Virus record (IMG/VR): IMGVR_UViG_3300046167_000815
Span: 1-64,000 of that record
DNA length: 64,000 nucleotides
Direction: 5' to 3' (one strand)
DNA from: a virus
Shown piece by piece: positions 15,377 to 59,633 of this stretch. The first letter of the stretch is position 1. Each line of letters opens with the position of its first letter. A program made the translations under genes and the position numbers. The notes beneath the pieces were generated by a model. It saw nothing but the letters and a program-made list of their open reading frames with translations, did not search any database and was not told the DNA's origin.

Positions 15377-15535
15377 ATGGCACAAATTAGACAAGAAATA
15401 TATGACGACAACGGACTTGTCGAAGTGAAATTCATCGAAATAAATGAACCGACACAAGAGGAATTGATAGCAGAAAAAGAAGCGGAACTTTTGAAGATAT
15501 ACGCTGAACTTAACGAATTAAAAGAAACAAATTAA
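15377..15535 (+). CDS. Small coiled-coil fibre-associated protein (52 aa; not in ORF track)
   Basis: MAQIRQEIYDDNGLVEVKFIEINEPTQEELIAEKEAELLKIYAELNELKETN*; paralogue at 16399. Confidence 0.8.
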   Translation: MAQIRQEIYDDNGLVEVKFIEINEPTQEELIAEKEAELLKIYAELNELKETN

Positions 15536-16398: not shown

Positions 16399-16566
16399 AT
16401 GGCACAAATTAGAGAAGAAGTTTACAACGAAGATGGATTAGTAGAAGTTAAATTTCATGAAATTGAAAATGAATTAACTGCAGAAGACATTATTGCTCAA
16501 AAAGAAGCAGAACTTCTGGCTATGTATACAGAGCTTGAGGCTTTGAAAGAAGCTAACAAAGAATAA
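16399..16566 (+). CDS. Small coiled-coil fibre-associated protein (55 aa; not in ORF track)
   Basis: MAQIREEVYNEDGLVEVKFHEIENELTAEDIIAQKEAELLAMYTELEALKEANKE*; paralogue of 15377. Confidence 0.8.
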   Translation: MAQIREEVYNEDGLVEVKFHEIENELTAEDIIAQKEAELLAMYTELEALKEANKE

Positions 16567-16573
16567 GAATATT

Positions 16574-16608
16574 AATTTAGCAGGAGCATTTGTTTCTGCT
16601 AAATTTTT
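16574..16608 (+). terminator. Stem-loop / probable terminator after the fibre cluster
   Basis: AATTTAGCAG...CTGCTAAATT inverted repeat followed by TTT. Confidence 0.55.
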
Positions 16609-16619
16609 ACACTATAACT

Positions 16620-17162
16620 ATGATAAAATTATTTAAATACACGGCTATATCTAACGGATACGACAGTGTACAGCATATGAAAGAAAGTTTATTTCACCCA
16701 GAAAGTTTTTCTTGGGCAGCACCTTTAGCAGGTGTATTAGGAACAGTGTCGGTAATATTTGAACAAATTTTTGGAATTCATATTGTAGTATTTTTAGTAC
16801 TATGTATTTTATTTTTTTTGGAATTATATACAGGCATAAAAGCGTCTAGAAAAGAAGGCAAAGGATTTAGGTCTTCTAAGTTTCAAAAAGGATGGTTTAA
16901 ATTAGGAGTATATGCGGTTATGATAGGGTCAATGAATATTTGCGCTATCTATATACCTAACAAACCTATATTCGGAATAAATATAAATATTTACGGATAT
17001 TTACATTACGTATTTTATAATTACGTATTGATTGCTCTATTTATATCTAACGTAGAAAATTTTGTAAGACTAGGATGGAATATGAACGGCTTTATTCCAT
17101 TAATAGCTAAAAGACTAAATTTAGAAGTTGTTGAAAAAGAAAAAGACAAAGACTCTAAATAA
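16620..17162 (+). CDS. Holin (phage holin 4-like)
   Basis: Several hydrophobic helices, ELYTGIKAS..EGKGFRSSKF.KG..K, ISNVENF..LG, charged C-terminus; ATG 16620 preferred over the TTG at 16590, which lies inside a hairpin. Confidence 0.75.
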   Translation: MIKLFKYTAISNGYDSVQHMKESLFHPESFSWAAPLAGVLGTVSVIFEQIFGIHIVVFLVLCILFFLELYTGIKASRKEGKGFRSSKFQKGWFKLGVYAVMIGSMNICAIYIPNKPIFGININIYGYLHYVFYNYVLIALFISNVENFVRLGWNMNGFIPLIAKRLNLEVVEKEKDKDSK

Positions 17163-21689: not shown

Positions 21690-24600
21690 ATGAAAAGAGC
21701 CGTTAATGTATATAAAGGTTTAAACTCCGATACTGCAAGAGACAGTATTAGCGGTGGTCTCTACATAGACGCACTAGATGTTAGAATTACTACTGACACA
21801 GGAGAGTCGCAAGGATGTATTACTAATATTAAAGGAAATAAAAAATATTTTACAATACCTGTTAGTGACCCAGACTTAGTAGTAAACGGAACCCCAGAAA
21901 TAATAGGAAGCACTTCTATAAGAAATACTATTATATTATTTGTTGCAGATGACGGTGGACAAAATGGTTGGATATACAGTATAGAATATTCTGATGATGA
22001 GCAACAACTTATTGGAGGACTTACTTTAATTTATAAAAACAATTCTTTAAAATTTAAAAAAGAATTTCCTATAGAAGCTGTAGGAAGATATGAAAATAGT
22101 AATATACAAAGAGTTTACTGGGTAGACTATAATAATTATATACGATCTTTAAATATTAAAGACATTGCTTTATCTACTCTTACACCTGGACTTATAGATA
22201 GTTTTCCTAGTGTAAAATTTGAACAGCCTCTATTAAAAAATGTTTTAGGCGGGGGTTCTTTACTTGTAGGTATTAATCAATATGCTTATAGATTAACTAC
22301 TGTAGACGGTAAACAAACTTTAATATCTCCTCCAGGAAATTTAATACACACTACTTCAGAGACCGAATCTGCGTTACAAAGTAGAACTTATACTGGAGAT
22401 AAAAAAGGCACTAACTCTGGGAAATCTTTACAAATAACAATAGATACTTCTAACTATTCTCATTTTGACACTATTGAACTAATTCATATACTACATGAAG
22501 ATTTAACAGGAACATCAGAAGTTTTTTCTGTAGAAACAAAAGGAATTAATGGAGCTGCTTCTGTAACATTTGTACACACAGGAACTGAGAACACAATTGT
22601 TCCTTTAGATATTGCAGAATACACAGTAAAAAACTACCCTTTTGTAACTGCAAAAAGTATAACTCAAAAAGATAATTCTTTAGTAGCCGCAAATATAAAA
22701 GGATCTAATTTTGATATAAACGATTTAATTCCTGATACAGAAAGTTTTGACGCTAAAGTTCCTAGACATAATTCTACAGGGTCTCTTCCAAATCCTGTTG
22801 TAGGAACTCCTGCACAACAAGAAATTGCTAAATTAGCCAATGCTTTTAATGTTGACTATAATATAGATGCTCATTGGGAACAAACTTGGCACGACAATAG
22901 CCAATATAAATTTCAATCGAATGGAACACGTTTAGGAGGAACAGGGCCTAACATAGAATATAATTTTCATTTACAGCCTTACCTTATAGATAATGTAGCT
23001 TCTTGTGAATTTCCTAATAATAATCATATAGGAACTGTATTAGTTAATTTAAATGATGGATACGGAAATTATGCCAATAATACCTGGGAAAACATGGCAT
23101 CTCCTTTTGTGTCTGGACTTTTAAAAGGTTACAAAAGAGGAGAAACATATAGATTTGGTATTGTATTTTATAATAAAAAAGGAGAAGCATCTTTTACAGA
23201 GTTTATAGGAGACATTAAATTTCCAGATATTTCTGATGAAGATTCTGTAAATAACTCTTCAGGAACTAATTTTTTTCCTACTAGTTTAGAAACAAATTCT
23301 AATCTTCCTGTTTCTGTAGATACTACAGCTTATGCTTTGGGAATAGAATTTAATGTAGACTTTAGTACTTGTCCTAGCTTACTTAATGAAATAGAAAGCT
23401 ATCAAATAGTAAGAGTTAAAAGATCTATTTCAGATACTAGACGTTTGTGTTCTGGTATTATGAAAGTAGGAATGAAATTTGATATTACTAGTAATGATGG
23501 AGGAGGAGGATCTGCTGACGATCCTGCTAATAACGGAGGTTATAATTTAGGAGGACCTAATTATAGCGAGGAAATACTGCACCACTTTACTTATCATCAA
23601 AGAAGATCTAATGCAGCAGATGCCCAAGAATTTCCTGGATATGGAATAAGTGGTAACTTTGCAACTATTAATAATAATCATATATTAGGCAATCCTTTTA
23701 AAGTATTTGGTGCATATGCTACTTTTTATTCTCCCGACGTATCTTATAATTTTAATGCAGTTAGAAATTCTATAGATCAAAATTCTTGTTTATTAATGAC
23801 AGGAAGATATGGGCAATATTTTTCTAACATTAATTCAGCAGTTTCTACTGCAGGAGTAGAACAAATATTTACTGATAATAATGTTACTGAAGGAAGTATA
23901 AAATCTTTTGATATAGTTTACTCTGCTCCTGCAACTACAGAAAACTTAGGAGCAAAAATAGAAGACCACAGACGTAAATTAAGGTCTGTAGGACAAGTAG
24001 ATAAAGATACTTCTCTTAAAGCTATTGAGTATGTTAAACAATGGAATGAATTAAATGTAGTAGATTTTTCTAATAGTGCACAATCAGATTCTGTAATGAG
24101 CACAGAGTTAACTACTGCTTGGGGGCCTTATTTAGGATATGATGATGTAGGAGTAAATAGTAATCTTTATTTTAGAAACTTTTTTACCTATTTAGGAAAC
24201 GCAGGTGCAGGATTAAATGATCACGAAGCAAGTAGTCCTACTCAGCCTCATCAAACTATTTTTCATAAAGGAGCTACAGGTATTACAGGGTCTTTGGCTA
24301 AAATAGATTATAATCCTTTAACAGGGCTTCCAGTAGCACAACTGTTACTAATCATGCTTTTAATACAGGAACTACTGTAGGTAGTGGGCCCGTAAGAGCA
24401 GTTAATCAAACTTTTGCTCCTTTAAATAAAGGTTTAGTACAAGAAAACTATACTAGTACTCCTATAATAGATATACTACTTCCTAAACAAGAAATTTATG
24501 GCGGCTACACTGCAGATATTTTATCAGGAAATATTTTCCAACCTGCTTCGCCTATTATATCAGTAGCTAACTTAAATCCTAAAGTTTTTGGTGGAGATAT

Positions 24601-26239
24601 ATTTCTACACATGTTTACTTTCCAGGAAAGTACAGCTTGGCTATGGGATAAATTTTATCAAAACGCTTTAAGTAACTCAAATGTAAAACAAGAGTTTAAC
24701 GAAAACAGAACTTCTACTCTTTGTTTTGTAGTAGAAACTGCAGTTAACGGAGAACTGTCTTACGGAGCAGATGTAAAAAGAGAAGTTACGTTTGATGTTG
24801 CAGGAGGTTCTTCTGGAGTAAATTCTACTATTTGGAGACAAGAAAATAATAATAGCACTACTACTTGGGGTAAACCAAATACTGCAGGACAAAAGGCTAT
24901 GTATAAAGATGTTTACAATACAGTATATTCTTCTGAAAACGATGATGTATCATTCTTTACAAAACCTCCAGCTTTTAATTCTTTAGGAAATGTAAACGAC
25001 ATTAGAGCTTATATATCACAAGTAAAGATAAATTCAGAAACTGTAGATTCTTGGACTTCTTTTGGGGTAAACGATTACTACGACGTAGATGATTACGGAC
25101 CTATAAATAAAATAATTACTTGGAGAGATAACGTATACTATTTCCAAGATAAAGCTGTAGGAGCATATTCTATTAACCCTAGAGCGATATCTTCACCTGG
25201 AGACGGTATTCCTACAGAGTTAGGATCTGCAAAAGGATTTAATGACCATACTTATCTTTCTACTAAATATGGAAGTATACACCAATGGTCAGTAAAAGAT
25301 TTAGAATCGGGAATATATTATTTTGACGGAACACATAAAAAGATTTTTAGAATATCTGGATCATCAGAACCTTTATCAGAAATGAAAGGACTTCACGGTT
25401 TACTAAAAAACTTTAACGGAAATATTTCTTTACGTAAAGAAAATGCAGGAGACAATCCTATATTAGGAGCGGGTGTACATACTACTAGAGACAGAGTTAA
25501 TAATGAAATATTATTTACTTTCTTAGGTACTTGGAAAGCCTCTGAGTTAAACGGAAACACTTTGTATTCTGAAGGTGAAATAGTAACTTACGGAGGAGCT
25601 AACTTTATAATAAGTACTACTTATACTTCTACAAACACTTCAAAAGAAGATGTGTTAGTAGCAGAGCTATATCAAAACTCTACAGTAACTACATTGTTGC
25701 CAGACGATAAAATTACTCTTGTATTTGACGAGCTTGTAAATCAGTTCTCTTCTCGTTATAGTGCTACTCCTCCAATCTATATAGAAAACGGAGATATATT
25801 ACTTTCTGCAGATCCTAGCAAACACAACGAAATTTACCAACACAATAAGGGTAACTGGGGAGAGTTCTATGGAAAAACAGAAGAGATGTCTATTAAGTTA
25901 GTACTAAACGAAAATGCTGACTTTAATAAAATACTTAGAACTTTAGAATTTAATTCTATTGTAAGAGATAATCAAAAAAATATAGACCGTACTAAAACTA
26001 TTACGGCTTTCCGTGTAGAAACAGAATACCAAGACACAGGTAAAATAGATTACGATTCAGGAAGAATTAAACGTAGATTCGACAAGTGGAGAGTACATTT
26101 ACCTAGAGATACAAAAAGCCCTGGACAAGATCGTTTGAGAAGTACTTATTTTATTTTAACTTTATACTTTGATAATACAGACAATCGTGAGCTAATTCTC
26201 GATAGAATTTTGTATTATTATGACATACAGATATTCTAA
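21690..26239 (+). CDS. Tail stabilisation / muzzle (nozzle) protein, one frameshift at ~24339
   Basis: KGLNSD, RVYWVDY.N, KGYKRGETYRFGIVFY, YGGY and FGGDIF (in the frame bridging 24340-24611), YG.I.K, RLRSTY motifs; the two ORFs join into about 1500 aa. Confidence 0.85.
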
Positions 26240-29200
26240 TGGCAAAGAAAAAAATTTATATAGATCCTTCAAAACGTGGTACGTTTACAGCAGAAGCTAA
26301 AAAACGTGGTATGGGTGTACAAGAATTTGCTTCAAAAGTAATGTCTAATAAAGATAGGTACTCTTCTTCAATGGTTAAACAAGCAAACTTTGCACGTAAT
26401 GCTGCTAATTGGAATCAAGACGGAGGAAATATAGATTCTATGAATGCTATGATGAAAGCAAGATTAGCATATGCTAATGAATTTGGAAATAATAGTGCTA
26501 AAAGAATGGTTGCTCCTGTAGATAATTCATATGATTTTGGCGATGGTAGAACAGGTACTCATTATATGGGCAGTTACGGCAATTATGCTATTCCTAATAT
26601 ACAAGACGTAGAAGGAAGTCTTCAAATGACAGGTCCTAGAATGGACGAAGCTATATTTTTTGATCGTCCTGAAGATGCTACTTATTTTGCCAATGAAAAC
26701 TATAAACGTGTATCTCCAGCATTCCAACAAAACGGAGGAAATATGAATGCTGTAAGTTTAATGGGTTACAGAGATGATTCTCCTTTTCGTAATGAAGAAA
26801 GTCTTAATATATACTCTCCTGACGGGCTTATAGATATGTCTAATGTAGGCATGCCTATAGTAGCTAACGGCCAAGTATTAGATCCTTATTCTGGAATAAA
26901 TCAAGTACCTCCTACAAAAAGTGGTTACGTAAGGGAAACTCCTTTAGAAACTTTTGAAAATGGAGGACGTATGGTTCCGCCTAATATTCCTATGTATTAC
27001 CAAGATTTTGGAACACCTATTTATAGAGATACAACTGAGATTCCTCCTAGTTTTCAAAATGGAGGCGGTCTTTATACATATCCTGGAAGACCTGGAGCAG
27101 TATATGAAAAAGGAACAGACGGAAATTGGAAAATTAATTTAGGAGCTGATACGCAAGGAAAATTTATTCCTATTGTAGATCCTAGATTAACAAGAACAGA
27201 ACAGTTAAATTTAAATGCTGTTCCTTTAGAAGAAACAGAATCTGTTGTTCCAGGTTACAATGAGTCTGCTTACTTTGACGATTTAAAATATTTAGAAAAC
27301 AGTATTAAAAAAGGATTTAAAGACGGTAGATGGTATCCGCATGTTTCTTTAGAAGGAGGTGAAAAAACAATTGCATACGGCCATAAATTAAAAAAAGGAG
27401 AAGATTTTTCTAAAGGACTCTCTCAAGAAGAGGCCGAGGCTTTAATGCTTAAAGACTATACTGTTAAAAAATCTTCTGCTCAAAAACATGTAGATAAAGA
27501 ATTTGGAAAAGGAACTTTTGAAAATTTAGATCCTCGTAAACAAATACTATTAACAGACTATCAATATAATGTAGGACTTACTAAATTTCCTAAATTAACT
27601 GAGGCAGTAGTAACAGATAATATAGATGCTGCTTTAAAAGAATACAAAAGATATCACAGTGGTAAAAAACCTTTAGTAGAAAGAAATAAATGGACAGAAG
27701 AACAAATAAAATCTTTTGCCTACGGAGGTAATATTTATAAATCTGGCGGCTACACAGTTACTAGATCTAACGACAGAAAAGGTAAAACTCATAAGGTAAC
27801 TAGAAAGTCAGATGGCAAAGTTAAATATTACGGCCATCCTATGAGAAACCAACCAAAGAATAAAAAAGTAAAAGAGGCTGCTGAAGCTAGACACAGAGCT
27901 CAAGGAAATTTCCGTAATCCTTTCTTTAAAGCTTATTGGGATAAAACTTGGAAAAACGGTGGAGTAATGGACTCTTATAATTCTTATCAATTTGGAGGTT
28001 CTATGCAAGAACTGCAAGAAAAAGAATCTAAAAGTTATTACGATGTAGAAGGTGTAAATAAAGAAAAACTACAAGAATGGTATAATATTGGTAAAGTTGC
28101 TCCTACTAATATTGGAGAAGCAAAGTTATTAGCAGAAGCAATAGGATATACTCCTGCTCAATCAAATATTGTAGCGGCACAATGGGCTTTAGAATCTGCT
28201 AGAGGAACAAAAACAGGAGGACAATTTAATTATTTTGGTATTAAATCTCATAGTAAAGCAACTAGAGATAAATTAAAAAATAAATACAATATAAATGTAT
28301 CTACTGCTGCACCAGTATCTACTCAAGAAGAATTTACTCCAGGCAAAAAAGAAACAATTAAATCTAGTTTTTTAAATTTTGATGATCCTATAGCTGCTTT
28401 TTTAGGACACAAAGCATTTTTAGAAACTAATAAAAGATATGAAAAAGCTTTAAAAGCAGAAACTTCTTTTGATTTTGCTAAAGAGTTAAAAAATGCAGGA
28501 TATGCAACTTCTGCAAAATATGCTCCTACTTTAGGGTCTATAGCTTATCCTTTTTTATCTTCAGAAGAAATAGAAAAGTTTAAAAGTTTAGGATCAAAAA
28601 TAAAAGACACATTACCAAAAGATAAAAAAACAAAATTAGTACAAGATAATATTGCACCCACACCCGTAGTTAAAGATGTTTTTACTCCTACAGAAATTCC
28701 AGGAACTAAAGTATCAGACGCTAAATTATTTGAAAGAAATATGAAACTGCCAAAAAACACAACCAACTTAGAAATAAAAAATGTCGTTCCTAAAAGAACT
28801 CCACAATTTGGGGCTTCTGCATTTGGACAAGGACAAATGTTTAAAACATACGGAGGTAAAACTTACCAAGGAAATGTGTATAGAAACGGAGAAATTCTTG
28901 CTGGAATAGGCGCAGGATTATATGGTGCTGCAGAAGGAATTCTTGATACAGTGACTCTTGGTCTTACTGATAACCTAACTGATAAAGGTTTTGACGCTCT
29001 TTTTACAGGAGAAAAAAATAAAAATGTAGGCGGAATTAGAGGAGCAGGTAATGTTGTAGGGGGAGTTGCAGGAGGATTTATTAATCCTGCAGGAACAGGA
29101 GCTGCGGTAGGACAAGTTGCTGGAGGTATGGGAGAAATGGCAGAAGCAACAGGAAACGAAAGATTAGACGCTGCAGGAAATGTTATAGAAGCTACAGGAA

Positions 29201-31408
29201 ATGTAGTAGGGAACTTTGTAGCTTATGGCGGGAACATACATCAAGTTGATCCTAATATGTCTGTAGGAACAAATATGTTAGGAAAACAATATGCTATTCC
29301 TGCAGGATATAAAGAAATGTATCAACAAAATTTAGGAGAAGCTATTCCTGAAGGAGCTACTTTATCACAAAGTGCTTTTGATTTATTTAATACTCAAGGA
29401 AAAATATCTAGTTGGAACGCTCCAAATACTCCAGACCCTTCTGCTGAAAAAGCTTATAAATACGCTGACTACAGTACTGGAAGCGGAGATGTAAGAGCTA
29501 ACCCACAAAGTAGAGCAAAACAAAGTGATTACGTTAAACCAGGACAAGTAAAAATGGTACATCCAGACGGAAGGTCTATGTATACAGATCCGCAAAATGC
29601 ACAGTTATTAATACAAAAAGGTTACCAACAAGAAGGAGTTAATCTTGTTGACGCTGCTACTTTTGGATACGGAGGTAAATATTATGGTTACGGAAGTAAG
29701 ATGTACAACGATTATGCAAAAGGAGGTAAACTTCCTGAAAGTGTATTACGTAGTAGACTAGAATCTCATATGTCAAAATCAGAAGCTGATGATTACATCA
29801 ACAGTTATAAGAAAGGCGGTAACATGATTAAAAGAGCAGACGGTTCTTATAGTCAAAGAGGATTGTGGGATAATATTAGAGCTAATAAAGGTTCTGGTAA
29901 AAAGCCTACTAAAGAAATGCTAAAACAAGAAAAGAAAATAAAAGGCAATAAAAAAACTTACGGAAGCAACATGTACAATAATGGAGGTTTCGGTATGAAT
30001 ACTATGAATGAAATTCCTGTAACAGAATTTAATGCAGGAGGCACTCACGAACAAAATCCTTTAGGAGGAATTCCACAAGGAATGGGAACTAATGGAAAAG
30101 TTAATTTAGTAGAACAAGGAGAGTTAAAAATAACAGATCCTAGAGATCCTTCTGGACAGTCTAAATTTATTGTATCTGCACAAAAAGATATGATTATTAC
30201 TAAAGAAATAGCAGAAGAAAATAATCTTCCTAAAACTTTTGTAAATAAAACTGTTCGTAAAGCAGCAGACATGTTGTTAAGAAAAGATTCTAGAAGAGAA
30301 GGAGATACTATTGAAGAAAATTCTAAACAACAAGACCTTATAGGATTTTTACAAGCTCATGAAACTTTAACTGCTATGAAAGAAGCAGAACAAAATGCAG
30401 AGTTTCAAGAAAAAATGATGACTCTTTCAGAAGAGTACCCTGAGCAAATGGCTACTATAATGCCTCCTCAATCAGAAATGGAAACAGAGATGGCTCCAGA
30501 AATGCCTAACCAAATTCCATTAGGAATGGCTATGCGATATGGAGGTAAAAAGAAAAAATACAAATATGGACACGGATCTAATATGTATACAATGGGAACA
30601 AATGTTCACCAAGTAGATCCAAACATGACATCTTTTACTCCTACTTTTCCTGAACCTACGCCTTTTTCTGCTGGTGTTGCCGACACTCTTCCTTTAAGAC
30701 CTTTTGCAGAAATGGATACTGCAGGTACTCCTAGTACTTCAGATTTTTTAGGATTATCTGACTCTCAAAAATTTGAAACAACAGACAGAGAATTAGCTAG
30801 TTATAAAGAAATGCAAGATACAGATAGTCAAGATTCTGAAAAACAAAGTTTTGTAAATTATGCAGGACAGCTTTTACCTGCTGCTTTAAATATAGGTATG
30901 GGGACTTTTTGGAAAAGAAGACACTGTTAATCTAGGAAGAGTATCTTCTAGAACTTTGCCAGAAACAGACGTTAGTCAACAATTAAGAGATGCAAGAATG
31001 AGCGCTGCTAGAACTGCTAATCAAATGCGAGGATCAGGACAAGCAGGAAGTTATTTAGCAAATATTGCTAATTTAAAAAATATTGATGATGCTACAAAAG
31101 CTAGAATATATCAAGATAAATACAATAGAGATGCGGCCATAGCTGCTAGACAAGCACAAATGGATATAAATGTAGATCGAGCTAACTTAGGTCTAAAAGC
31201 ACAAGAAGAACAATACAAGAGAGCTGCTGAAGCTGCTAAACAAAAACAACTATTTACAGGAATAGGGCAGGCAGCACAAAAACTTAGAGCAGATCAATTA
31301 GATGATATAGCTCAAGCATACAATAGACAATTTTCTGATAGATATGGATTTGATTATGAAAAACCTTTTCAAAGAAAAAATAAAAGAAAAAATAAAAACG
31401 GTAACTAA
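26239..31408 (+). CDS. Multidomain cargo/ejection protein with lysozyme-like and GH73 glucosaminidase-like domains (frameshift at ~30902)
   Basis: Removing one G at 30900-30903 gives IGMGLFGKEDTVNLGRVSSRTLPETDVSQ, fusing ORFs 26239-30930 and 30956-31408 (about 1720 aa). Lysozyme-like LEN...EGGEKTIAYGHKL...YNVG (~27270-27720); GH73 AAQWALES.RG, NYFGIK, GYAT..KYA (~28100-28550); GGTHEQNPLGG core motif. Confidence 0.8.
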
Positions 31409-39493: not shown

Positions 39494-42400
39494 ATGGCTT
39501 GTAGATATTTTGTTGGTGGTTACTCACTAACCGAAGCACAATTTAAAAAAGTGCTTAATGATGGTCTTCTAGATCAATTACTAGTTAAACAAGGTATTGA
39601 AATACCAGGGTTTAATATTAAAGAGGAGTTTATAGAAAGTACTCTTGAAAGTGCTAAACAAGGTCCTGTAGAATTAAGAGTAGTATCTAAAATAAACAGT
39701 AAGAAGCGAATAAACAATCAATTAGAAAAAGTAAGCTACACAGAAGGAGACGTTATAGGCGGGACTAATAGAAGAAGTGCTGCACGTAAATTAACTACTG
39801 TTATAAAAGAAGCTAACGATCAAATTAAAAAAGAAAATAAAAGGTTAAATAAAAAAAGAAAACCAATAGACCTCATACTGGTAACTTCTGTTGGAGGTAA
39901 ACTACAATACGGAGAAAATATTTCTAAAAAAGTAGTACAAGAAATAGAAGACAGTCCTTATGTAAATCTAGAAGATGGTTTTATATATATGCTGGTTCCT
40001 AGTTCTTACGGTTTATATCCAATAAGATTAGAGTCCCGTTTCTTAGGAGAAACAAATGTAGGTAGCCAAGTAAAAGAAAACGTAAAAAAATTATTTACTG
40101 AAACAGACAACAAAGTTTTTGACAATATTGCAAAAAATATAAGTAGGTTTTTATATAAAACAACAATAAAAAAGACTCCTGAAGGAGTTAATATAACTAC
40201 TACTAAAGCAGATAAAGAACAAGTATCAAAGACTTTTGAAACTGCCGAAGAACTAATTACTTTTATTTTAGGAGACCGAGCAGGTAAAAAACTAAACAAA
40301 GATAAAGACGGCAACCTTAGTACTAATAAAGGTTTATTGGCTCATGTAAACAGTTTAAAAATAAACAATAATGTTAAAGACCCTAATTCTTTATCTAATG
40401 ATTTTTATGCTAACAATGAATTTATAACTACAGATGTCTATACTGAAGGAGGTAACTTTTTTAATAGCAGTAGTTTTGTTGTAGAAGCATTTAATCCTAC
40501 AACCCAAACAACAAAAGTATTAGGAGAGATATTAAGCAGCTCTATACCTGTTAAAGAAGAAAGTGAGGCTAGCTCTAAAATAGTTAAACCTATTGTAAAA
40601 GAAGAAACTAAAGAAGACGAACTTCCAATTAATAATAAAACAATAGAAGAAGTACAAGAACTTCAATCTATTTATATACCTATAGAAAACTCTAATTTAC
40701 AATATAGAGTTTACGTAAGAGCTAAAGAAAATACTTTAGAAATGTATGAAGTAGAAAAAGGAAGTTTAGTAGCTGTTCCTAATTCTAATGCAAAAAAATG
40801 GAAAGTATCTTCTAAGGCAAATTCTAAAGAAACTAGTATTGCTCGTAAAGAAGCAAAGCCTAAGTTTGACGAACTTAAAAAACAGTTTGGTACAAAAGAT
40901 ACTACTACTCCAGAAGGAGGTATATACCAAGATCCTAAAACTGGAGAAGATGTAGGAACAGGTTTGTTTGATAATCCTATTGTTGAAGAAACAGAATCTA
41001 CTCCTGAGACAGAAACAAACATATCAGGAATATTTGATTACGGAGAAGAAGGAGATGTAGGGGAAGATTTAGATATAAAACCACGTACTCGTACTGTAGA
41101 TAATAAAGAAAACGCTGTACAATGGGATAAAGAAAAAGAACTTAAATGGTTAATAGATAAACTAGGCAGAAAAGTTCTAGATGGAAAAGTATCTTTATTT
41201 AATTCTGTAGAAGACTTAGAATCTTATTTGCCTAAAGAAACTTACGAAATGCTATTAGAAGCACGTAAAAACGGAAAGTTTCTTAACGGTTTGTTTACTA
41301 AAGCAGGAATGTACATATCAAACAATGCTTTTGATGGAACAGGTTTTCACGAAGCATTTCACGTAGTATTTAATCTAGGGCTTAACTTAGAACAAAGAAT
41401 TAGTTTATTAAATGAAGCAGTAGAAAAATACTCTGACGAAATCTCACCAGAAGCTACTTTAATAAAAATAGAAGAAGTACTTGCAGATAAGTTTATGGAG
41501 TACGTACAAGCAGAAGGAGAAGTAAAAGGTCTTGTAGGAAAAATAGGCAAATGGTTTAAAGCTATGTTTAGAGGTTTTAAATTATTTTTTAATAAAAACT
41601 CTGTAGTTTCTATATCAGATTTGTTTAGTGATATTCAATTAGGTGTTTATAAAAACAAAATTACTTTTGAAAATACGGACTTAACTAAAATACATCCTGA
41701 AAATATTAAGCTGCGTGAAACAGAAAATACTAATAAAAGTAATAACGATCCTATACCAGAGTTAGATCCTAGATTAAAAAAAGATGCTTTTCAATATATG
41801 GAAAACAGACTTTTTCAAGAACTAGATAAAATAAGAGAAGAAAACGCTGATTTTAAAAATTTATCAGATTCTGAATTAATTAATGAAATATCTAAACAAG
41901 GAGGTATAAAACGTATTTACGGGGTGCTTCTTTATAGAATGTCCCTGGACGCTAAGGCTAGTGCAAACGCAGGTAAAGATATTTCTAATTTATTAGAAAT
42001 ATGGAATGCGTTTACAAATAACAATAAAGCAATAGAAAAAACAATAATTGCTGGAAAAAGAATGCCTATTTTTAAACTAGGCCTTACTCCTTTAGCTAAA
42101 GAGTTTAATCGTTCTTTACGTAATAGAGGTATTAATATTAATTTAGATTCAATAGAAGACTTAAAATATACTTTTACAGAAGAAGAAGAAAATTCTTTTG
42201 CTAAAGATGTAGAGAATAGCACTGCAGAAGAGCGTTGGCAACAAGCTTATATAGAAATAAATCCACAAGAAACTTTATCTCAACTTACTAGAAGAAGACT
42301 AAGTACTATTCCAAAAATGATTATAGTAGACGGAGAAGAAGTGAGAGCTACTAATAGATTAGGAATTCCTATTAACTATTCTGAAAAAGAAGTATTTGCT

Positions 42401-45400
42401 TATTTAGCCCATAATATTACTGATTCTTATAGTCCTTCTAAAATGGTAAATAGACTAAAAGAATTGTCTGACAAAAAACCTTTTATAGAAGAGATTTTAA
42501 ATATGATACAAAAGTATCCTAATTTTAAAAATTCTTTGTACACTACTTTGGCTTCTAAAACTTTTCAAAAGTTTTTAATGGTTTTAGAAGTAGATGGAAA
42601 TTACAGAACTTTTTATTCTAACAGAAAATCTATAGATAATCTTATTACAGAAACTATGATTAACGGTTTTGTAGTAGATGAGAATCCTCTTTTTGATAAA
42701 CACGATAGTGAAAGTGAACTAAAAGGACAAATAGATTTTGAAACTCCTATTAAGAAAAAAGTATCAGAACAAATTGCTAGATTAAATAGTCTAACAGAGC
42801 GTAGTAAGGTTACTACTACTAAAGAAGAAATAACTGATTTTATTAGTGACTTTGCAAAATTTTTAAAAGACAATCATTTAAGTGTAAGTGAAGATCAGTT
42901 ATTAGAAATATGGAATCCTGATACAGAAAATACTAAATCTAAATGGAATAATATTGTAAAATTACTTAGTAGTACTGGTAAAATATTTAAAGAACTTGAG
43001 CAAGGTAGAAATCCTTTTTTACAAATGCGAGTGTCGGACGACAGTGTATTTAAAAATGTATTAAAAGAATTTGTATTTAGAGCAAAATCAGGAATGGAAA
43101 AAGACCTAAGTATTGCTTTTGTAAATGGAAATAAAAAAGCAGTATACGCAGTTCAATATTCTAATTACTTAAATAAACTAATTTCTAAATTTAAAAATCC
43201 TAAAGATTTTAAAGAATACAAAGCAGAAATAGCAAACGATCCTTTGCTTAGTAGTATGCCAATGATTACAGATCTTTTAACCGAAGAAGGAGAGGCTTCT
43301 CAGTTAATGGATAATTTAGAAACAGTTATTTTTGATTCTTTAGCAAGAAGCGGAAAAAATACAAATGTAGACTATTCTGATTTGTCAGATATTGAAATAG
43401 AATCTATGGCAATGGCGGCCTTTTTTAAACAAGGTAACAAAAGCAACTATGGTTATTACAAACTTCCTATTCCTGCAGATAACTCTGTATTGCCTCTAAT
43501 TCAATATAAAAAATATGACTTTAAAGAAGTCGTAGATAGATTTGTTCAAGTAGCCAATGCAGAAAGAAAAAGAATAAATTTCTTTAAAAATTTACCAGAA
43601 GACTCTTCTCTTCTTTTAATAGAAAACTTTAAGAAGAACGCAGGTAAATATCATATATTAAACTTTTTAAATGGCAAAGTATCTGAAAATACTAGTGTTG
43701 ATGATATTAGAATTATAATAGAAGACCATTTACTAACAGAGTTTTTAGAGTTACAAAAAGAAAAATATAAAGATGCGGGCATAATAAAAGAATACGAAAA
43801 GGGCCCTAATGGTAAAATTACTTTTACTGATGGAGTAATTAGTAAAAGCCAAGAAAAAAATTCTTCAGAGTTCTTTAAAAGTTATTTGTTTAATTCATAT
43901 TTAATGAATACTCAAATGACTACTATTTTTGCAGGGGACCCTGCTTTTTATACAGGCACAGGAGATTATCAAAAAAGATACAAACAAATAGTATCTCCTG
44001 GAACTTTTACTAATTCTGAAATTATATATGATAAGTATTCTGGTTTAGTATTCAATGATGAAGTAGCTCCTACAGAATCTTACGTTGTAGATAATATTAT
44101 AGATTTAGTAAGAGCTTCTGATCTGCCTGCAGAAAACAAAAAAGAATTAATAGCTAGATGGGAATCAACTAGAAGTACTACTTCTGATAAAGGCCATAAT
44201 AATCTTACTGATGCGGCTACTTTTATATCTTTAGATAGAGCTAAAAATATTTTAGTATCTCTTGATAGATATACTCCAGCACATAAAAAAGCATTTGAAA
44301 GAATAAAAAAAGGAATTGAAAAACCAGAAGACTCTGCTTTGTTTAGTGTCTCAAAACCTTTTATGTTTAGTAAGATGAATATAGAAGGAGTAGAAGTTCC
44401 TATTCAAATTAAAAACTCAGAAGTACTTTTAACTAAAGCACTTGCATATAAAAAAGATGCAGACGGAAACTTTATGCGTCCTAAACTAGTAGCTGCTTAC
44501 GATTTATTAAACAATCCTAAACCAGATGGTCCGCAAATAGATTTTATTGCTTTTGAATCTGCTGTAAAAGTAGGAGCTATAGGAAGTAAACTAGACGAAG
44601 AAGGAAACGTTACATATAATGAATTAGTAGAAGATGATGAAGGCAAACTAATATTAAACGGACCTCCTGCTATTGTTACTTTAGACCATGCAGACTGGAG
44701 ACTTCAACAAGAAGTACCGCCTAAATACGAAGATGCTTCTGGTAACTTTGGTAGCCAATTACGTAATCTAATTATAAGTGATATGTCAATGGACGGCATA
44801 TACAAAATAAATAAAAAAGATTATACAGGAAGAGAAGTAGCAAGAATGTATCAAGATCTTATAGTAGAAAATCTACAAGAGTCTTACGAAGATGTAGAAG
44901 AAATGTTCCTGGACGAAGACGGGGAAATAGACTATAAAAAAATTACTACTCATTTAAGAGCAGAAATTACAAGAAGAAACTTAGGAGAAGAATATTTTAA
45001 AGCAATAGAGCTTGTAGATAATGTTCGTAAAAATAAAAAAACACCTACTTTACCTCTTTGGCATCCTTTAGTTTCTTATAAAGTAGAAAGCCTTCTAAAC
45101 TCTTTCTTTAAAAATAATGTTACCAAACAAAAAATTAAAGGAGGAGCAATGGTCAATGCTACTTCTTACGGAGTATCTGAAGAACTAGAGTTCTACATAG
45201 ATAAAAACGGTAATTATTTAATGGAAGCTTTGCTGCCTTGGTGGACTAAAAGATTCTTTCCTAAAAATAAAGATGGCGAGATAGATTTAAAAACACTGCC
45301 AAAAGAATTAACAGCGCTTTTAGGTTACCGTATTCCTACTGAAGATAAATACTCTATGTTTAATATTAAAGTAGTAGGGTTTACGGATTCAGCAGCAGGA

Positions 45401-48400
45401 GGTACTATTATTCTTCCTCAAGAAGCTACTACTCAAGCAGGACTCGATTTTGATATTGATAAACTTTCTATGATTATTCCTGAGTACAGAATAACAAAAG
45501 AAGGTAAAATAGAATACAAAAAATATTTAAATGAAAATTCTTCTGCTGAAGAAATTGTGGACGCTATTTTTGACAGTAATAGTTCTTACGAATCTTTTGT
45601 TAATAAGTATGTTCCAAAAAGCAGTCAAAAAAGAATACTAAAGTTAAAAGAAGAAGCTGATCAAGATATTTTTAATTCTGTTTTATCAAGAAACAACTGG
45701 AAAAAAGATGTAGGTTTTACAGAGATTGTAACAGAAATAAAAGATTTAACAGAAGAAAGTAAAAAAGAAACAGACCCTGTAAAAAAAGCCGCTCTTAAAA
45801 AACAAATTAATTCTTTACGTAATAAAGTATACGAAGAAAAAGATTTATTTGATGCAGGTGTTAATACTGCGCATGAAAGATACAAGACTCTTAAAAAAGA
45901 TATAGCTGGTTTTGTAGAAACGATTTCTAAAGACGAATACGTAGACTTTAATACTAAAGCAACACGTAATAATCAATTATTACAAATAATGATTGGTATT
46001 ATGGAAAATAAAGAAACGGCTCTTTCTATTATTGACTCTGGTAACTTTGATAAGTTAATAGAATTAGGAACTAGTACTAGAATACTACAACTACCAAAAG
46101 ATTCTAATCTTAAAAAAGAAGGTATAGATATTTTAAAAGATTTTAAATCTGGAAAAATAGATGTTTTACAATATAGAGAACTACTTAAAGATTTTTCTAA
46201 AAAATTAGATGATAAGGATTTTAATATAAATTATCCTTCTACACAATTGACTTTGTTTAGACGTAATATGACAGGTAAAAAGCTAATTGGTATTTTTGCA
46301 AATCATAATTCTAATCATGCTAAAGCACAATACACAAATCTTGCTTTGAATTCAAGTGTTAAATTTGATGGAATAGAATACAACAGTTTAAATAATGTAA
46401 AAAATTCTGAAGGAGAAAGAATATCTAAATCATTAGCAATTAAATTAGCTGCTGTTGTAGACAACGCTCAAGAACCTGTATCTGCTTATTTAAATATGAA
46501 CACTTACACGGCCAATGTAATCGCATACTTATCTAGATTAGGAGTTAAAGAAGATACTATTTTTGCTTTTGTTAATCAACCTTCAATTGTAGAACTTACA
46601 AAAGAGCACTTTAACGAAAAAGGATCTGCTGCAACAGAAAAAAATAGAGTAGACAAACACATTGCACAGCTAAAAGGAGATTTAGGCATCAATAATATTA
46701 GTTTAGATTCTATAGAAATGGAAGAAGGGAATCTAAATTTAAAAGAATTGCAAGATGCTTTAGATAATAATAACTCTAAAGAAACATTAATTACTCAGTA
46801 TAAAGCGTTAGTAGCTTTTAAAGATCATTACAATATAGCAGAAGAATTAAGCCAAATAACGCAAGCTTCTAAAGTAGATACTCAACCTGTAGGTCCTTCT
46901 AATGGAGAAAACTATGTAATGATTAATAAACAACAAAGAGTATTAAATAGAAGTAACTCTATGATTACAGGTAAAGAAGAATTATTTTTTACAGAATCAG
47001 AGCAATTAATTAATCCTGCTTTTAATAAATATGGATGGTTAAAACCTTTAGGTATTTTAAATAAAGTATTTCCTTCTATAGGAAAAATTTCTACAGAAAC
47101 AGGTAGTATACAATACTCTATGCTAGGAAAAATAAAAAATTTCTTTTCTGATTTAAAAACAGATTTTAATTTAACAGCTTCGGAAGCACGCCAGGTAGAC
47201 AGTCTGTTTATGTCTTACATAGGGTCTAAACTTCCTTTCTTTAATTACAAAGATGCTACAAGAGTTTTAAATGAAGTTCCTGATACATTGCGTAAGTACA
47301 AAGAAGAAAACCCAGATTCTATTTACATGCCGCTTTTAGAAGCTTTGTATACTAAAGATGCTACAAGAACTGTTCCTGTACGTAGAATAGAATACTACAA
47401 TACAGGTAAGAAGAGTTTAGATCATGAAGAAGCAAGAGCAGCTTGGAAACAAATGCTAACTGCAGAAAATGCTAAAGACAGAAAACTAGCGTTAGATTTA
47501 GTTAAATATACTTTTTTCTCTAATGGATATAGTTTTAGTTCTTATTCATTCTTTAATATGATTCCTGTAGAGTTTTGGAAAGACTCTTTTGCAAAAGAAG
47601 ATATTAATAAAGGAGTAGGACTTTTAGACGAAAACAATAATAGTTTTAATGATATAGCTGAATTAGTTTTTGAAGATTTAAAAAACGAACCTGCGGTAGG
47701 AGTTGACGGTTACATAACACAATCAGGCGCTGTATATAATTTTATTAAACAGTTTATACAAAATACTGCAGAAAAATCTATGGTAGTACCTTCTTTAAAT
47801 TTAAAAGAAGATACTCCAAGAGGATTTACTCCTAAAAAAGGAGTTTTAAAATTAGCACCTGACGAAGTATTTGTTTTTGGAACTACACAAGAAGGAGCTC
47901 ATAATATAGATGCTGCAGGGTTTGCTTTTAGCGGAAACGCTACAACAAATAAATCTTTGTATAAAAAAGGAGACACAGGTAAATGGACTCAATACGGTAT
48001 AACGGGTCAAATTACACTTGGTACAGAAGGACAAGGATTTGGTATAAGAATGCAAAAAGCTACTTTTAAAGATGGGTCTTTAGAAAAAATAGAAGGTCCT
48101 AAACAATTAGAAGAAGCTGAAAGTAGAAAGCTTATAACATCTATGAAATCTGATTTAAGAAAATTAATTAAAGCAGCTAACGAAAATAATAATAAAACTT
48201 TTATTGTAGGAAATTTAGATAATTCTACTAATGATACAGGAAGAACAAGTTTTAAAATTATTAAACAAGCTTTAGAAGAAGTTAACAAAGAAGCTATGTT
48301 TCCTGAAAATGTAATTTTTCCTGAAAAATACGATCCAAGGATAAATAACAATAGAAAAATTGTAAAAGTTGATAATACTCAAAGTTTAATTATTAGAAAA

Positions 48401-48964
48401 GCAGCTCATCAAAACTATAAAAATAATGATGGAGTTTTTCCTTCTTTCTTTAAAGTAACTAAAAATAAAGTTACTAGTGTTTACGAAATAAATAAAGAAA
48501 CTTTAGATAAGGATTACTTAGAATACAATAAGATTCCTACATTAGGAACTAACAATTTTATTGTAGAATTTAATTACAATAATCCTATAAATGAGTCTAT
48601 AGTTCCTAAAATTATTAAGAAGAGCAGCGGTTTAACTTTGACCAACAAAAAAGAAATAGAGGAAAAGTATCAAGAAGCTCCTCCAATAGATCCTACAAAC
48701 TCTTCTTTGTTTACTATTTCTACAAAAGAAGTACTGGAAGATTTAAAAGACGACGATTACCCAGACATAGATGTTTTACAATTTTCTGCGCCTACAATAA
48801 AATCAAACATAGAAACACCAAATATTGGGCCCAAGGAAGCTCCTTACTCAGAATATAGTACTTTAGCAAAAAGTAAAAAGCAAGTTCCTATGCCAGAAAG
48901 TATTTGGGAAAAAGCAAGCGCTTTAGAAAAAGCAAGTATTATGATACAACTTAAAGAATGTTAA
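39494..48964 (+). CDS. Virion-packaged RNA polymerase polyprotein (crAss/phi14:2 gp66-like) with zincin-like and Macro-like accessory domains
   Basis: Catalytic AGLDFDIDKL (DFDID at 45446-45460), GYRIPTED, FESAVKVG, KRYKQIVSPG, TDAATFI, AAVVDNA; HEAFH zincin motif at 41348-41362. Confidence 0.92.
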   Translation: MACRYFVGGYSLTEAQFKKVLNDGLLDQLLVKQGIEIPGFNIKEEFIESTLESAKQGPVELRVVSKINSKKRINNQLEKVSYTEGDVIGGTNRRSAARKLTTVIKEANDQIKKENKRLNKKRKPIDLILVTSVGGKLQYGENISKKVVQEIEDSPYVNLEDGFIYMLVPSSYGLYPIRLESRFLGETNVGSQVKENVKKLFTETDNKVFDNIAKNISRFLYKTTIKKTPEGVNITTTKADKEQVSKTFETAEELITFILGDRAGKKLNKDKDGNLSTNKGLLAHVNSLKINNNVKDPNSLSNDFYANNEFITTDVYTEGGNFFNSSSFVVEAFNPTTQTTKVLGEILSSSIPVKEESEASSKIVKPIVKEETKEDELPINNKTIEEVQELQSIYIPIENSNLQYRVYVRAKENTLEMYEVEKGSLVAVPNSNAKKWKVSSKANSKETSIARKEAKPKFDELKKQFGTKDTTTPEGGIYQDPKTGEDVGTGLFDNPIVEETESTPETETNISGIFDYGEEGDVGEDLDIKPRTRTVDNKENAVQWDKEKELKWLIDKLGRKVLDGKVSLFNSVEDLESYLPKETYEMLLEARKNGKFLNGLFTKAGMYISNNAFDGTGFHEAFHVVFNLGLNLEQRISLLNEAVEKYSDEISPEATLIKIEEVLADKFMEYVQAEGEVKGLVGKIGKWFKAMFRGFKLFFNKNSVVSISDLFSDIQLGVYKNKITFENTDLTKIHPENIKLRETENTNKSNNDPIPELDPRLKKDAFQYMENRLFQELDKIREENADFKNLSDSELINEISKQGGIKRIYGVLLYRMSLDAKASANAGKDISNLLEIWNAFTNNNKAIEKTIIAGKRMPIFKLGLTPLAKEFNRSLRNRGININLDSIEDLKYTFTEEEENSFAKDVENSTAEERWQQAYIEINPQETLSQLTRRRLSTIPKMIIVDGEEVRATNRLGIPINYSEKEVFAYLAHNITDSYSPSKMVNRLKELSDKKPFIEEILNMIQKYPNFKNSLYTTLASKTFQKFLMVLEVDGNYRTFYSNRKSIDNLITETMINGFVVDENPLFDKHDSESELKGQIDFETPIKKKVSEQIARLNSLTERSKVTTTKEEITDFISDFAKFLKDNHLSVSEDQLLEIWNPDTENTKSKWNNIVKLLSSTGKIFKELEQGRNPFLQMRVSDDSVFKNVLKEFVFRAKSGMEKDLSIAFVNGNKKAVYAVQYSNYLNKLISKFKNPKDFKEYKAEIANDPLLSSMPMITDLLTEEGEASQLMDNLETVIFDSLARSGKNTNVDYSDLSDIEIESMAMAAFFKQGNKSNYGYYKLPIPADNSVLPLIQYKKYDFKEVVDRFVQVANAERKRINFFKNLPEDSSLLLIENFKKNAGKYHILNFLNGKVSENTSVDDIRIIIEDHLLTEFLELQKEKYKDAGIIKEYEKGPNGKITFTDGVISKSQEKNSSEFFKSYLFNSYLMNTQMTTIFAGDPAFYTGTGDYQKRYKQIVSPGTFTNSEIIYDKYSGLVFNDEVAPTESYVVDNIIDLVRASDLPAENKKELIARWESTRSTTSDKGHNNLTDAATFISLDRAKNILVSLDRYTPAHKKAFERIKKGIEKPEDSALFSVSKPFMFSKMNIEGVEVPIQIKNSEVLLTKALAYKKDADGNFMRPKLVAAYDLLNNPKPDGPQIDFIAFESAVKVGAIGSKLDEEGNVTYNELVEDDEGKLILNGPPAIVTLDHADWRLQQEVPPKYEDASGNFGSQLRNLIISDMSMDGIYKINKKDYTGREVARMYQDLIVENLQESYEDVEEMFLDEDGEIDYKKITTHLRAEITRRNLGEEYFKAIELVDNVRKNKKTPTLPLWHPLVSYKVESLLNSFFKNNVTKQKIKGGAMVNATSYGVSEELEFYIDKNGNYLMEALLPWWTKRFFPKNKDGEIDLKTLPKELTALLGYRIPTEDKYSMFNIKVVGFTDSAAGGTIILPQEATTQAGLDFDIDKLSMIIPEYRITKEGKIEYKKYLNENSSAEEIVDAIFDSNSSYESFVNKYVPKSSQKRILKLKEEADQDIFNSVLSRNNWKKDVGFTEIVTEIKDLTEESKKETDPVKKAALKKQINSLRNKVYEEKDLFDAGVNTAHERYKTLKKDIAGFVETISKDEYVDFNTKATRNNQLLQIMIGIMENKETALSIIDSGNFDKLIELGTSTRILQLPKDSNLKKEGIDILKDFKSGKIDVLQYRELLKDFSKKLDDKDFNINYPSTQLTLFRRNMTGKKLIGIFANHNSNHAKAQYTNLALNSSVKFDGIEYNSLNNVKNSEGERISKSLAIKLAAVVDNAQEPVSAYLNMNTYTANVIAYLSRLGVKEDTIFAFVNQPSIVELTKEHFNEKGSAATEKNRVDKHIAQLKGDLGINNISLDSIEMEEGNLNLKELQDALDNNNSKETLITQYKALVAFKDHYNIAEELSQITQASKVDTQPVGPSNGENYVMINKQQRVLNRSNSMITGKEELFFTESEQLINPAFNKYGWLKPLGILNKVFPSIGKISTETGSIQYSMLGKIKNFFSDLKTDFNLTASEARQVDSLFMSYIGSKLPFFNYKDATRVLNEVPDTLRKYKEENPDSIYMPLLEALYTKDATRTVPVRRIEYYNTGKKSLDHEEARAAWKQMLTAENAKDRKLALDLVKYTFFSNGYSFSSYSFFNMIPVEFWKDSFAKEDINKGVGLLDENNNSFNDIAELVFEDLKNEPAVGVDGYITQSGAVYNFIKQFIQNTAEKSMVVPSLNLKEDTPRGFTPKKGVLKLAPDEVFVFGTTQEGAHNIDAAGFAFSGNATTNKSLYKKGDTGKWTQYGITGQITLGTEGQGFGIRMQKATFKDGSLEKIEGPKQLEEAESRKLITSMKSDLRKLIKAANENNNKTFIVGNLDNSTNDTGRTSFKIIKQALEEVNKEAMFPENVIFPEKYDPRINNNRKIVKVDNTQSLIIRKAAHQNYKNNDGVFPSFFKVTKNKVTSVYEINKETLDKDYLEYNKIPTLGTNNFIVEFNYNNPINESIVPKIIKKSSGLTLTNKKEIEEKYQEAPPIDPTNSSLFTISTKEVLEDLKDDDYPDIDVLQFSAPTIKSNIETPNIGPKEAPYSEYSTLAKSKKQVPMPESIWEKASALEKASIMIQLKEC

Positions 48965-59628: not shown

Positions 59629-59633
59629 TTTTT

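Follow-up and report, generated by a model that had tools for sequence, protein, structure and literature searches.

A conserved aromatic-x-x-Gly-Gly peptide marks the joints between exchangeable modules in the cargo protein of a marine crass-like phage

Results

We analyzed a window of 64,000 nucleotides (positions 1 to 64,000 of IMG/VR virus record IMGVR_UViG_3300046167_000815), part of a 79-kb crass-like phage contig, with a focus on the gene at 26239..31408 (+ strand), the product of which is identified by sequence as crassvirus cargo protein 1 (C1), a homologue of crAss001 gp45. This protein is a string of modules, among them a lysozyme-like domain, a GH73 glucosaminidase and the C-terminal CARG1 domain, separated by a short recurring peptide that ends in Gly-Gly and that we call a seam. 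Comparison of relatives and metagenomic assemblies shows that the seam is a conserved inter-module joint where whole modules have been lost, gained, relocated or swapped without disruption of the reading frame.

The seam peptide and its family consensus

The translation of 26239-30930 contains all 15 Gly-Gly sites listed in a preliminary description of this DNA, along with the four degenerate ones. Of the 15, 10 (FENGG, FQNGG, FAYGG, YKSGG, WKNGG, YQFGG, FGYGG, YAKGG, YKKGG and YNNGG) conform to the strict pattern [FYW]-x-x-G-G; the remaining five are variants, four of which (NQDGG, QQNGG, KTYGG and VAYGG) have W or F at position -4, and one, MRYGG, has M at -3. An eleventh strict site missing from that list, FNAGG, lies at residue 1264, in the first strand of the CARG1 domain. 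These 11 strict sites compare with 1.55 ± 1.25 expected (0 of 5000 shuffles reached 11), or with 1.9-2.3 expected when the shuffles preserved local composition in blocks of 10-40 residues. None of the 16 other large open reading frames (ORFs) of the window is enriched in the motif, their total being 6 copies against about 5 expected. Across 82 distant relatives of C1, we counted 589 copies of the motif, compared to 91 expected; shuffles of 10-40 residue blocks gave 103-119 ± 11. The median number of copies per family protein is 9, and the maximum is 26.

The position-specific preferences in the family extend beyond the two glycines. An aromatic residue occupies position -3 in 38% of all Gly-Gly dipeptides, compared to 5-17% at neighboring positions, and an aliphatic residue occupies +2 in 48% of all Gly-Gly and in 57% of those that have the -3 residue; in the latter group, Met at +2 is enriched 6.5-fold and acidic residues are depleted 5- to 10-fold. 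Thus, the family consensus is aromatic(-3)-x-x-G-G-x-aliphatic(+2). Gly-Gly pairs within recognized folds of C1 lack the aromatic residue, namely, SLEGG in the lysozyme-like domain, TKTGG in GH73, NPLGG in CARG1 and four pairs in a Gly-rich stretch, FNAGG being the exception.

Modules are gained, lost and moved from seam to seam

We compared 83 family members all against all using BLASTP, which yielded 16,228 internal alignment ends, and found that 50.6% of these lie within 6 residues of a motif, compared to 8.6 ± 1.0% with shifted motifs. Alignment starts are most frequent at the aromatic residue and the first Gly, and alignment ends at the second Gly and position +3.

Close orthologues display the exchange directly. 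One of them (P0003), over the columns aligned before a frameshift discussed below, is the window protein but for a single residue and the absence of a 104-residue module, which we denote M2; its junction reads NWNQD|GGNMNA, so that residues 62-165 have been removed from seam 1 to seam 2. M2 is also absent from P0005, P0006 and the related IMG/VR locus L004; in P0004, it sits at seam 3 instead, a place taken in P0005 by another module, about 300 residues long, that contains the GH19-like motif 'GRGLNQLT'. The DNA identity between the window and L004 falls from 99.7% to 95.3% exactly at seam 1. Independent seawater assemblies contain the same kind of variation. A 7.2-kb contig from the public run X10 skips 26420-26731, with a 13-nt microhomology at GGAGGAAATAT, and replaces 26915-27051 with 872 nt; this variant carries about 290 extra residues at another seam. 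In run X3, the M2 contig has a depth of 23, compared to 47-49 on either side, and one loose end connects the DNA preceding seam 1 with seam 2; we infer from this that the M2-plus and M2-minus forms coexist in this sample.

Two proposals of the preliminary description are thereby strongly supported. The location of the motifs at module borders is evident both from the alignment ends across the family and from the seam-to-seam indels in near-identical orthologues. That the motifs allow gain and loss of payload follows from these indels and from their recurrence in independent seawater assemblies.

Identity and modular organization of C1

The ORF 26239-30930 (P0001, 1563 aa as read) was assigned to C1 because of its Pfam matches to CARG1 and GH73, the match of its C-terminal fold to chain M of 7QOG, and its position between the muzzle and virion RNA polymerase (vRNAP) genes. 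The CARG1 match, to PF25725 (crAss_CARG1), has an E value of 4e-13 and a score of 50 bits, above the cut-off of 27, and spans residues 1260-1386. An AlphaFold2 model of residues 1140-1445 matches 7qog_M, the portal-bound domain of crAss001 gp45, with an E value of 2.5e-5, a target-normalized template modeling score of 0.67, 32% identity and a root-mean-square deviation of 3.3 over 126 residues. The GH73 match (PF01832; E 5.6e-15, 56.5 bits against a cut-off of 30.2) covers residues 642-768, and 'ALES' and 'YATS' are visible by eye in the sequence of this module. The lysozyme-like match, of the T4 type (PF00959; E 7.4e-6, 26.7 bits against a cut-off of 22.3, residues 373-482) was obtained with the module scanned alone and was not reported by Pfam when the whole protein was scanned. 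The units named in the preliminary description, lysozyme-like, GH73 and conserved core (PF25725), therefore exist.

The protein starts with M1 (residues 1-61; 26239..26421), a basic, helical module with the sequence KKIYIDPSKRGTFT...QANFARNAANW that belongs to phrog_20603 and shows 60-68% identity to diverse crassviruses. Seam 1 (NWNQD-GG-NI; 26407..26433) and seam 2 (AFQQN-GG-NM; 26719..26745) are the left and right edges of the natural 312-nt indel and enclose M2 (residues 62-165, 104 aa; 26422..26733), a polymorphic payload module with no fold assigned. M3 (residues 168-238; 26740..26952) is predicted to be a small beta domain, and is followed by seams 3 (FENGG, residues 239-243) and 4 (FQNGG, residues 272-276) with a short Pro-rich piece between them (26953..27066). 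The lysozyme-like domain (residues 341-492; 27259..27714) ends at seams 5 and 6 (FAYGG-NI-YKSGG; 27715..27750), where 25 alignment starts fall in residues 481-500. Next is a basic R/K module (residues 505-570; 27751..27948), a seam-bounded block common to about 42 family members, and seams 7 and 8 (WKNGG ... YQFGG; 27949..27999), with 34 alignment ends in residues 561-600. The GH73 glucosaminidase module (residues 588-868; 28000..28842) matches the endolysin family phrog_3513.

Seam 9 (KTYGG), a Gly/Ala-rich hydrophobic stretch (residues 874-993) with a weak TMP_2 match, and seam 10 (VAYGG) occupy 28843..29232. By eye, residues 886-990 of this stretch resemble residues 136-158 of gp45, where a transmembrane segment has been predicted (PMC10172136); in a Kyte-Doolittle scan (19 residues, threshold 1.3), the stretch is below the transmembrane threshold. 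About 870 residues of payload precede the Gly-rich hydrophobic segment, comprising two predicted peptidoglycan hydrolases, two basic modules and small domains of unassigned fold. Downstream are a module at residues 999-1141, seams 11 and 12 (FGYGG, YAKGG) and a helical mini-module (residues 1164-1189), together spanning 29233..29805, with alignment starts clustering at residues 1141-1160; then seam 13 (YKKGG), the GLWDNIRA module (residues 1195-1245) and seam 14 (YNNGG), at 29806..29988, common to 77 of the 82 relatives; and, finally, the putative portal-binding CARG1 domain (residues 1251-1431) and seam 15 (MRYGG), at 29989..30546. All these features are on the + strand. The payload of the C1 family is very diverse: among them, the relatives P0026, P0030, P0035, P0038, P0069 and P0088 contain ADP-ribosyltransferase (ART) domains of the ART-PolyVal family, five of which are in P0088, as well as CHAP, LysM and GH19 domains, an ADP-ribosyl exoenzyme domain and a weak match to a kinase.

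The protein ends neither at 30620 nor at 30930. One extra G at 30899-30902 (GGGG, compared to GGG in L004) splits the C1 gene into the window ORFs 26239-30930 and 30956-31408. Five close orthologues (P0002-P0006) continue for about 160 residues past the window stop at 30930, and the +1 frame of the window encodes exactly the tail of these orthologues, up to 31408. Contigs of all three public runs compared (X1, X3 and X10) leave out the extra G and likewise continue to 31408, the X1 contig being otherwise identical to the window over 4 kb. Because it is absent from L004 and from the contigs of these three runs, the extra G is probably an assembly error or a private mutation; the real C1 product consists of about 1722 aa and its gene ends at 31408.

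Structure models of the seams

In two AlphaFold2 models, eight seams (at residues 62, 166, 242, 1146, 1163, 1194, 1250 and 1436) lie in stretches with a predicted local distance difference test score (pLDDT) below 50. Better-predicted elements stand beside them: M3 (residues 170-238) scores 62-89, CARG1 reaches 90, and the helical mini-module consists of two helices at 48-66 between seams below 50. The models support location of the seams in poorly ordered linkers, although, with a mean pLDDT of 50-57, a low score at a seam is a weak sign of disorder. The underlying alignments are shallow because global MAFFT alignment of this mosaic family mis-aligns shuffled modules, and with such alignments AlphaFold2 gave no confident prediction for M2 or the GLWDNIRA module. 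A Foldseek search of the PDB with a model of residues 40-260, including M3, returned no match at E <= 0.001, and a wider PDB structure search with the same model returned only helical-hairpin look-alikes of model residues 1-54, none of them over M3. For M2, the ESM Atlas contained only unnamed viral clusters.

Two modules also exist as free-standing proteins

The GLWDNIRA module (residues ~1195-1240; 29821-29973), which is very highly conserved and not covered by any Pfam or PHROG family, is present in 80 IMG/VR loci from many samples (L005-L083), with identities reaching 97%. In about 60 of these 80, it is a basic micro-protein of about 50 residues that starts with M..MIKRADG and ends in a run of Lys; in L060, the one locus where neighbors were tested with Pfam, this micro-protein is encoded about 1.4 kb downstream of a crassvirus capsid gene. 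In about 20 further loci, an ORF of capsid size, with the same C-terminal sequence, lies a few kb upstream. The free-standing GLWDNIRA proteins begin exactly at the residue that follows the seam in the fusions.

M1 occurs on its own in 46 proteins of 58-111 aa (P0089-P0134) and in 67 further IMG/VR loci. Its pattern, IxIxPSKRGTFT...KKANFARNAxKW, is found alone, at the C-terminus of proteins of 180-370 aa or inside C1, and is almost always preceded by Gly-Gly. In about 65 of the 67 loci, M1 either starts with MAKKKxK-IYIKP, as in the present C1, or comes after a larger domain or a variable leader, with Gly-Gly 0-1 residue ahead of the core. Most free-standing M1 proteins have a variable leader of 5-55 residues that ends in Gly-Gly; the shortest, such as MKAGG and MKKNGG, might reflect mis-called starts. 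In phage cr10_1, M1 makes up a protein of 75 residues, MKELEGVYPLYPVPSYKNGG|IHIKK..., which is annotated as 'transcriptional regulator' and has its gene (MT774382 47339-47566) just ahead of that of the capsid. The gene beside that of M1, annotated as 'peptidase', has no Pfam peptidase match and no homologue in the genome analyzed here, and was dropped as a candidate.

Free-standing M1 and GLWDNIRA proteins stop before the position of the C-side Gly-Gly, and the C-terminus of full-length C1 also lacks a seam. The motif is therefore a feature of junctions rather than a tag on every module. In line with this, not a single ORF in about 160 loci ends in aromatic-x-x-GG, the only recurrent Gly-Gly ends being those of capsid proteins (...TGGSF), so that a C-terminal tag was rejected, and no tiny basic seam-bearing proteins were found among the small ORFs of this genome.

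Re-analysis of crAss001 virion gel bands

We re-assigned by peptide mass the published MALDI peak lists for crAss001 virion gel bands 1-10 (PMC6235969, supplement 14). This recovered gp47/50, gp49/44, gp20, gp26/22, gp25 and gp23. Eight virion proteins were identified clearly and the portal weakly, and gp45 was not detected in any of bands 1-10 by peptide-mass matching. The copy numbers in the cryo-electron microscopy (cryo-EM) structure are 12 for the portal and up to 12 for gp45 (PMC10172136). Separately, the uppermost bands of the gel, 1-2, contain gp34, gp44, gp40 and gp35 together, pointing to a tail complex of crAss001 that resists SDS.

Possible roles of the seam in the virion

We give an even chance to the possibility, ranked first, that C1 is an ejection protein threaded without being cut and that the seam is a structured joint within it, doubling as the point of in-frame exchange. 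By homology with crAss001 gp45, C1 would be anchored to the portal by its CARG1 domain and ejected N-terminus first. The chain would stay in one piece, with Gly-Gly as a hinge, so that every bead could fold, unfold and pass through the portal and tail independently of the others, and the two hydrophobic anchors might cap the neighboring modules or form a small local structure. If all seams are equivalent, any seam-to-seam recombination would give a working protein, and short DNA microhomology at the Gly-Gly codons could help such recombination; together, these properties would explain the fast turnover of payload. We rank the uncut joint first because of the predicted location of seams in linkers, their restriction to junctions and the lack of a GG-type protease in Pfam scans of nearly all ORFs of at least 100 aa, as well as the seamless fusion point of the vRNAP polyprotein, the precedent of N4 vRNAP, which is packaged unprocessed (PMC5512222), and the tolerance of Pro immediately after Gly-Gly (55 of 770 sites, 1.28-fold, that is, not depleted), which fits a joint better than GG|X cleavage.

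Several observations weigh against an uncut joint. A mere flexible hinge would not need the conserved -3 aromatic and +2 aliphatic residues, which implies that some partner recognizes these anchors or packs against them. The start of free-standing GLWDNIRA proteins coincides with the post-seam residue, and the variable M1 leaders look like leaders with a processing site. P0026 carries an NAD-dependent ART beside LysM and GH19 on one chain, an awkward arrangement for an uncut protein because these modules act in different compartments. Finally, crAss001 gel bands 5-7, placed at about 80-100 kDa by mass matching, show no peptide-mass signal of gp45, with the portal, comparable in copy number, weakly represented in band 5.

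Alternatively, the seams could be protease sites and C1 a polyprotein cut at or within Gly-Gly, in the virion after assembly or on ejection, such that lysins and small basic proteins would be freed as separate effectors. We consider this reading possible but doubtful. The N-termini of modules encoded by separate genes equal the post-seam residue, M1 relatives bear variable leaders that end in Gly-Gly, P0026 mixes cytoplasm- and periplasm-acting modules, and the absence of an intact gp45 signal at about 80-100 kDa is a weak negative in the same direction. The motif also resembles known GG-type sites, such as those of adenovirus, (M/I/L)XGG|X, African swine fever virus (ASFV) pS273R, GG|X, and potyvirus HC-Pro, YXVG|G, the double-glycine leaders of C39 peptidases and T4 capsid-targeting sequences. 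Like them, it is a short stretch that ends in Gly-Gly, preceded at a short distance by a hydrophobic residue, and is located between functional units of packaged proteins or after variable leaders, but it differs in that the aromatic residue is one position beyond the P4 hydrophobic, the +2 aliphatic is equally conserved, Pro is tolerated and no cognate cysteine protease was found in the Pfam scans. A T4-type capsid-targeting leader was rejected on the grounds that C1 starts directly with M1, free-standing GLWDNIRA proteins are leaderless and only some free-standing M1 proteins have a Gly-Gly leader. Two proteases are candidates: a zincin-like domain fused to vRNAP and a DUF2201_N metallopeptidase (60082-60795, - strand). 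The former is in the vRNAP polyprotein (39494..48964, + strand; 3156 aa, with HEAFH at residue 619 and DFDID at residue 1985), which fuses a zincin-like region corresponding to the C-terminal part of gp47 to a gp50-like RNA polymerase, and its HEAFH region is, as judged from sequence, the only packaged candidate protease. Zincins are not known for specificity towards Gly-Gly. Cleavage of fused crassvirus vRNAP polyproteins, possibly by the zincin, has been proposed (bioRxiv 10.1101/2020.03.07.982082), but this gp47C-gp50 fusion has no seam near its junction at about residues 700-756. Pfam scans of nearly all ORFs of at least 100 aa detected only HExxH-type peptidase candidates and no GG-type cysteine protease (no C39, C48, adenain-like or prohead protease), although a divergent one could escape. 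At the site itself, Pro after Gly-Gly is not depleted, and small Ala shows a 3-fold depletion there. Nor is the motif avoided in the other virion proteins (6 copies against about 5 expected), and no cleavage of gp45 has been reported.

Docking appears improbable to us. Here, the seams would be short linear motifs, the two hydrophobic anchors of which attach to a recurring site of the tail barrel, the portal or the procapsid, laying out the string of modules inside the particle or loading it during assembly. The bipartite hydrophobic form and the many copies per protein (median 9, up to 26) would suit this function, and the resolved gp45 segments in crAss001 begin at or just after a seam (214-245 after FSAYGG 205-210, and 425-552 from AFGG), but the seam residues themselves are mostly unresolved in the cryo-EM map (PMC10172136). 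Moreover, neither the remaining cargo proteins of the phage nor the free-standing modules contain the motif, C-terminal ends lack it as well, and C1 already has a dedicated portal-binding domain; docking to the capsid interior, in particular, is at odds with the tail-barrel location that homology to gp45 would imply for the N-terminal payload (PMC10172136). Hence, whereas the module borders and payload turnover of the preliminary description stand, neither mechanism it offered, protease release or capsid docking, was borne out. Least credible by far is that the motif has no role in the protein and is a by-product of a Gly/Tyr/Asn-rich linker or a DNA signal, either a recombination hot spot or an internal Shine-Dalgarno sequence (GGAGG) with a start codon. 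The density of GGAGG in this ORF is indeed 4 times that of the genome, Met often stands at the second residue after Gly-Gly, and the natural indel uses the 13-nt microhomology. Nevertheless, the enrichment survives local-block shuffles and is specific to positions -3 and +2, on which grounds a compositional artefact was rejected. An internal start of the form GGAGG-N4-ATG was likewise rejected, given that genes of this phage have A-rich leaders without Shine-Dalgarno sequences and that Gly codon use in the seams is the same as elsewhere, with variable codons (GGA, GGT, GGC); the motif is also retained in relatives with unrelated DNA.

Comparison with known systems

In crAss001, the N-terminal part of C1 is in the tail barrel and its C-terminal domain is on the portal, and the protein is thought to exit N-terminus first; virion presence, tail-barrel location and ejection of C1 are known for crAss001 only (PMC10172136). 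The protein described here resembles gp45 in the sequence and predicted fold of CARG1, the location of its gene after the muzzle gene and, as judged by eye, the Gly-rich hydrophobic segment upstream of CARG1 (PMC10172136; PF25725; 7QOG chain M). Furthermore, gp45 contains an M1-like module at residues 375-428 and the same seam motif at residues 209, 263, 332, 391, 427 and 562. The present C1 is twice as long, with about 870 residues of payload before the hydrophobic segment compared to almost none in gp45, and M1 is N-terminal here but adjoins CARG1 in gp45. The published description of gp45 (Bayfield et al. 2023, PMC10172136) mentions neither the motif nor module exchange.

C1 also bears some resemblance to the polyvalent proteins of phages and conjugative elements (Iyer et al. 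2017, PMC5512222), which are long, multidomain, thought to be packed and injected, and endowed with fast-changing cell-wall hydrolases and ARTs; the relatives P0026, P0035 and P0088 indeed carry ART-PolyVal. Zincin-like peptidases have been proposed to process polyvalent proteins (PMC5512222), which often include a zincin-like metallopeptidase domain, whereas C1 itself has none and the HExxH motif is in the separate vRNAP ORF. The domains of C1, unlike those of polyvalent proteins, are bounded by one specific peptide; the word 'linker' and crAss phages do not appear in PMC5512222.

With lysin-bearing ejection and tape-measure proteins, C1 shares the combination of hydrolase domains and a hydrophobic segment in one chain. 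T7 gp16 and the tape measures of TM4 and T5 (Pb2) are virion-internal, exit ahead of the DNA and combine a peptidoglycan hydrolase with membrane-active segments in one chain. We know of no repeated junction motif and no comparable within-species exchange of cassettes in such proteins. N4 gp51 and gp52 are further lysin-bearing ejection proteins (PMC13434306).

Genomic context of the C1 gene

The phage is marine, the gene being present in 20 public runs, all seawater or viral metagenomes, that come from 15 studies. The window encodes the crassvirus major capsid protein (6476-7984), ring proteins and the muzzle. The C1 gene adjoins the muzzle gene, and four large ORFs downstream match crAss001 gp47, gp49 and gp50. 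The muzzle (PF25731) is represented by two ORFs, 21690-24380 (896 aa) and 24611-26239 (542 aa), which are 230 nt apart, with stops in all frames between them and profile positions ~720-948 missing; L004 matches the window at 22483-26432, including the muzzle gap, at 99.7% DNA identity. The DUF2201_N/PhageMetallopep putative metallopeptidase, the second candidate protease, belongs to a minus-strand trio (58459-60795), together with a MoxR-like AAA ATPase and a VWA-like DUF2201 protein, in a replication-side gene block. Elsewhere in the window, two paralogous small acidic ORFs, 15377-15535 (52 aa) and 16399-16566 (55 aa), both start with MAQIR.E.Y...GLVEVKF; the first is just upstream of the ORF 15549-16388, and the second is just upstream of a holin-like ORF, 16590-17162.

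Implications

Full-text literature searches returned no published description of the motif, the closest published frames being polyvalent proteins as defined by Iyer et al. 2017 and C1 of crAss001. The structure of crAss001 raised the question of how crassviruses, which rank among the most abundant phages of the gut and the sea, store and eject their cargo. The joint peptide provides a simple rule for parsing huge, poorly annotated cargo proteins into functional modules, and a target for deciding whether the cargo threads through the portal as one chain or is cut; the seams could also serve as natural insertion points for engineering phage-delivered proteins. Should the seams be cleaved, a packaged metallopeptidase would free a mixture of lysins, toxins and small basic proteins that differs from strain to strain, a phage counterpart of the GG-directed maturation of adenovirus and ASFV in which the cassettes are swapped at the cleavage sites. 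The seams would explain the turnover of payload, including lysins, ADP-ribosyltransferases and kinases, between near-identical strains.

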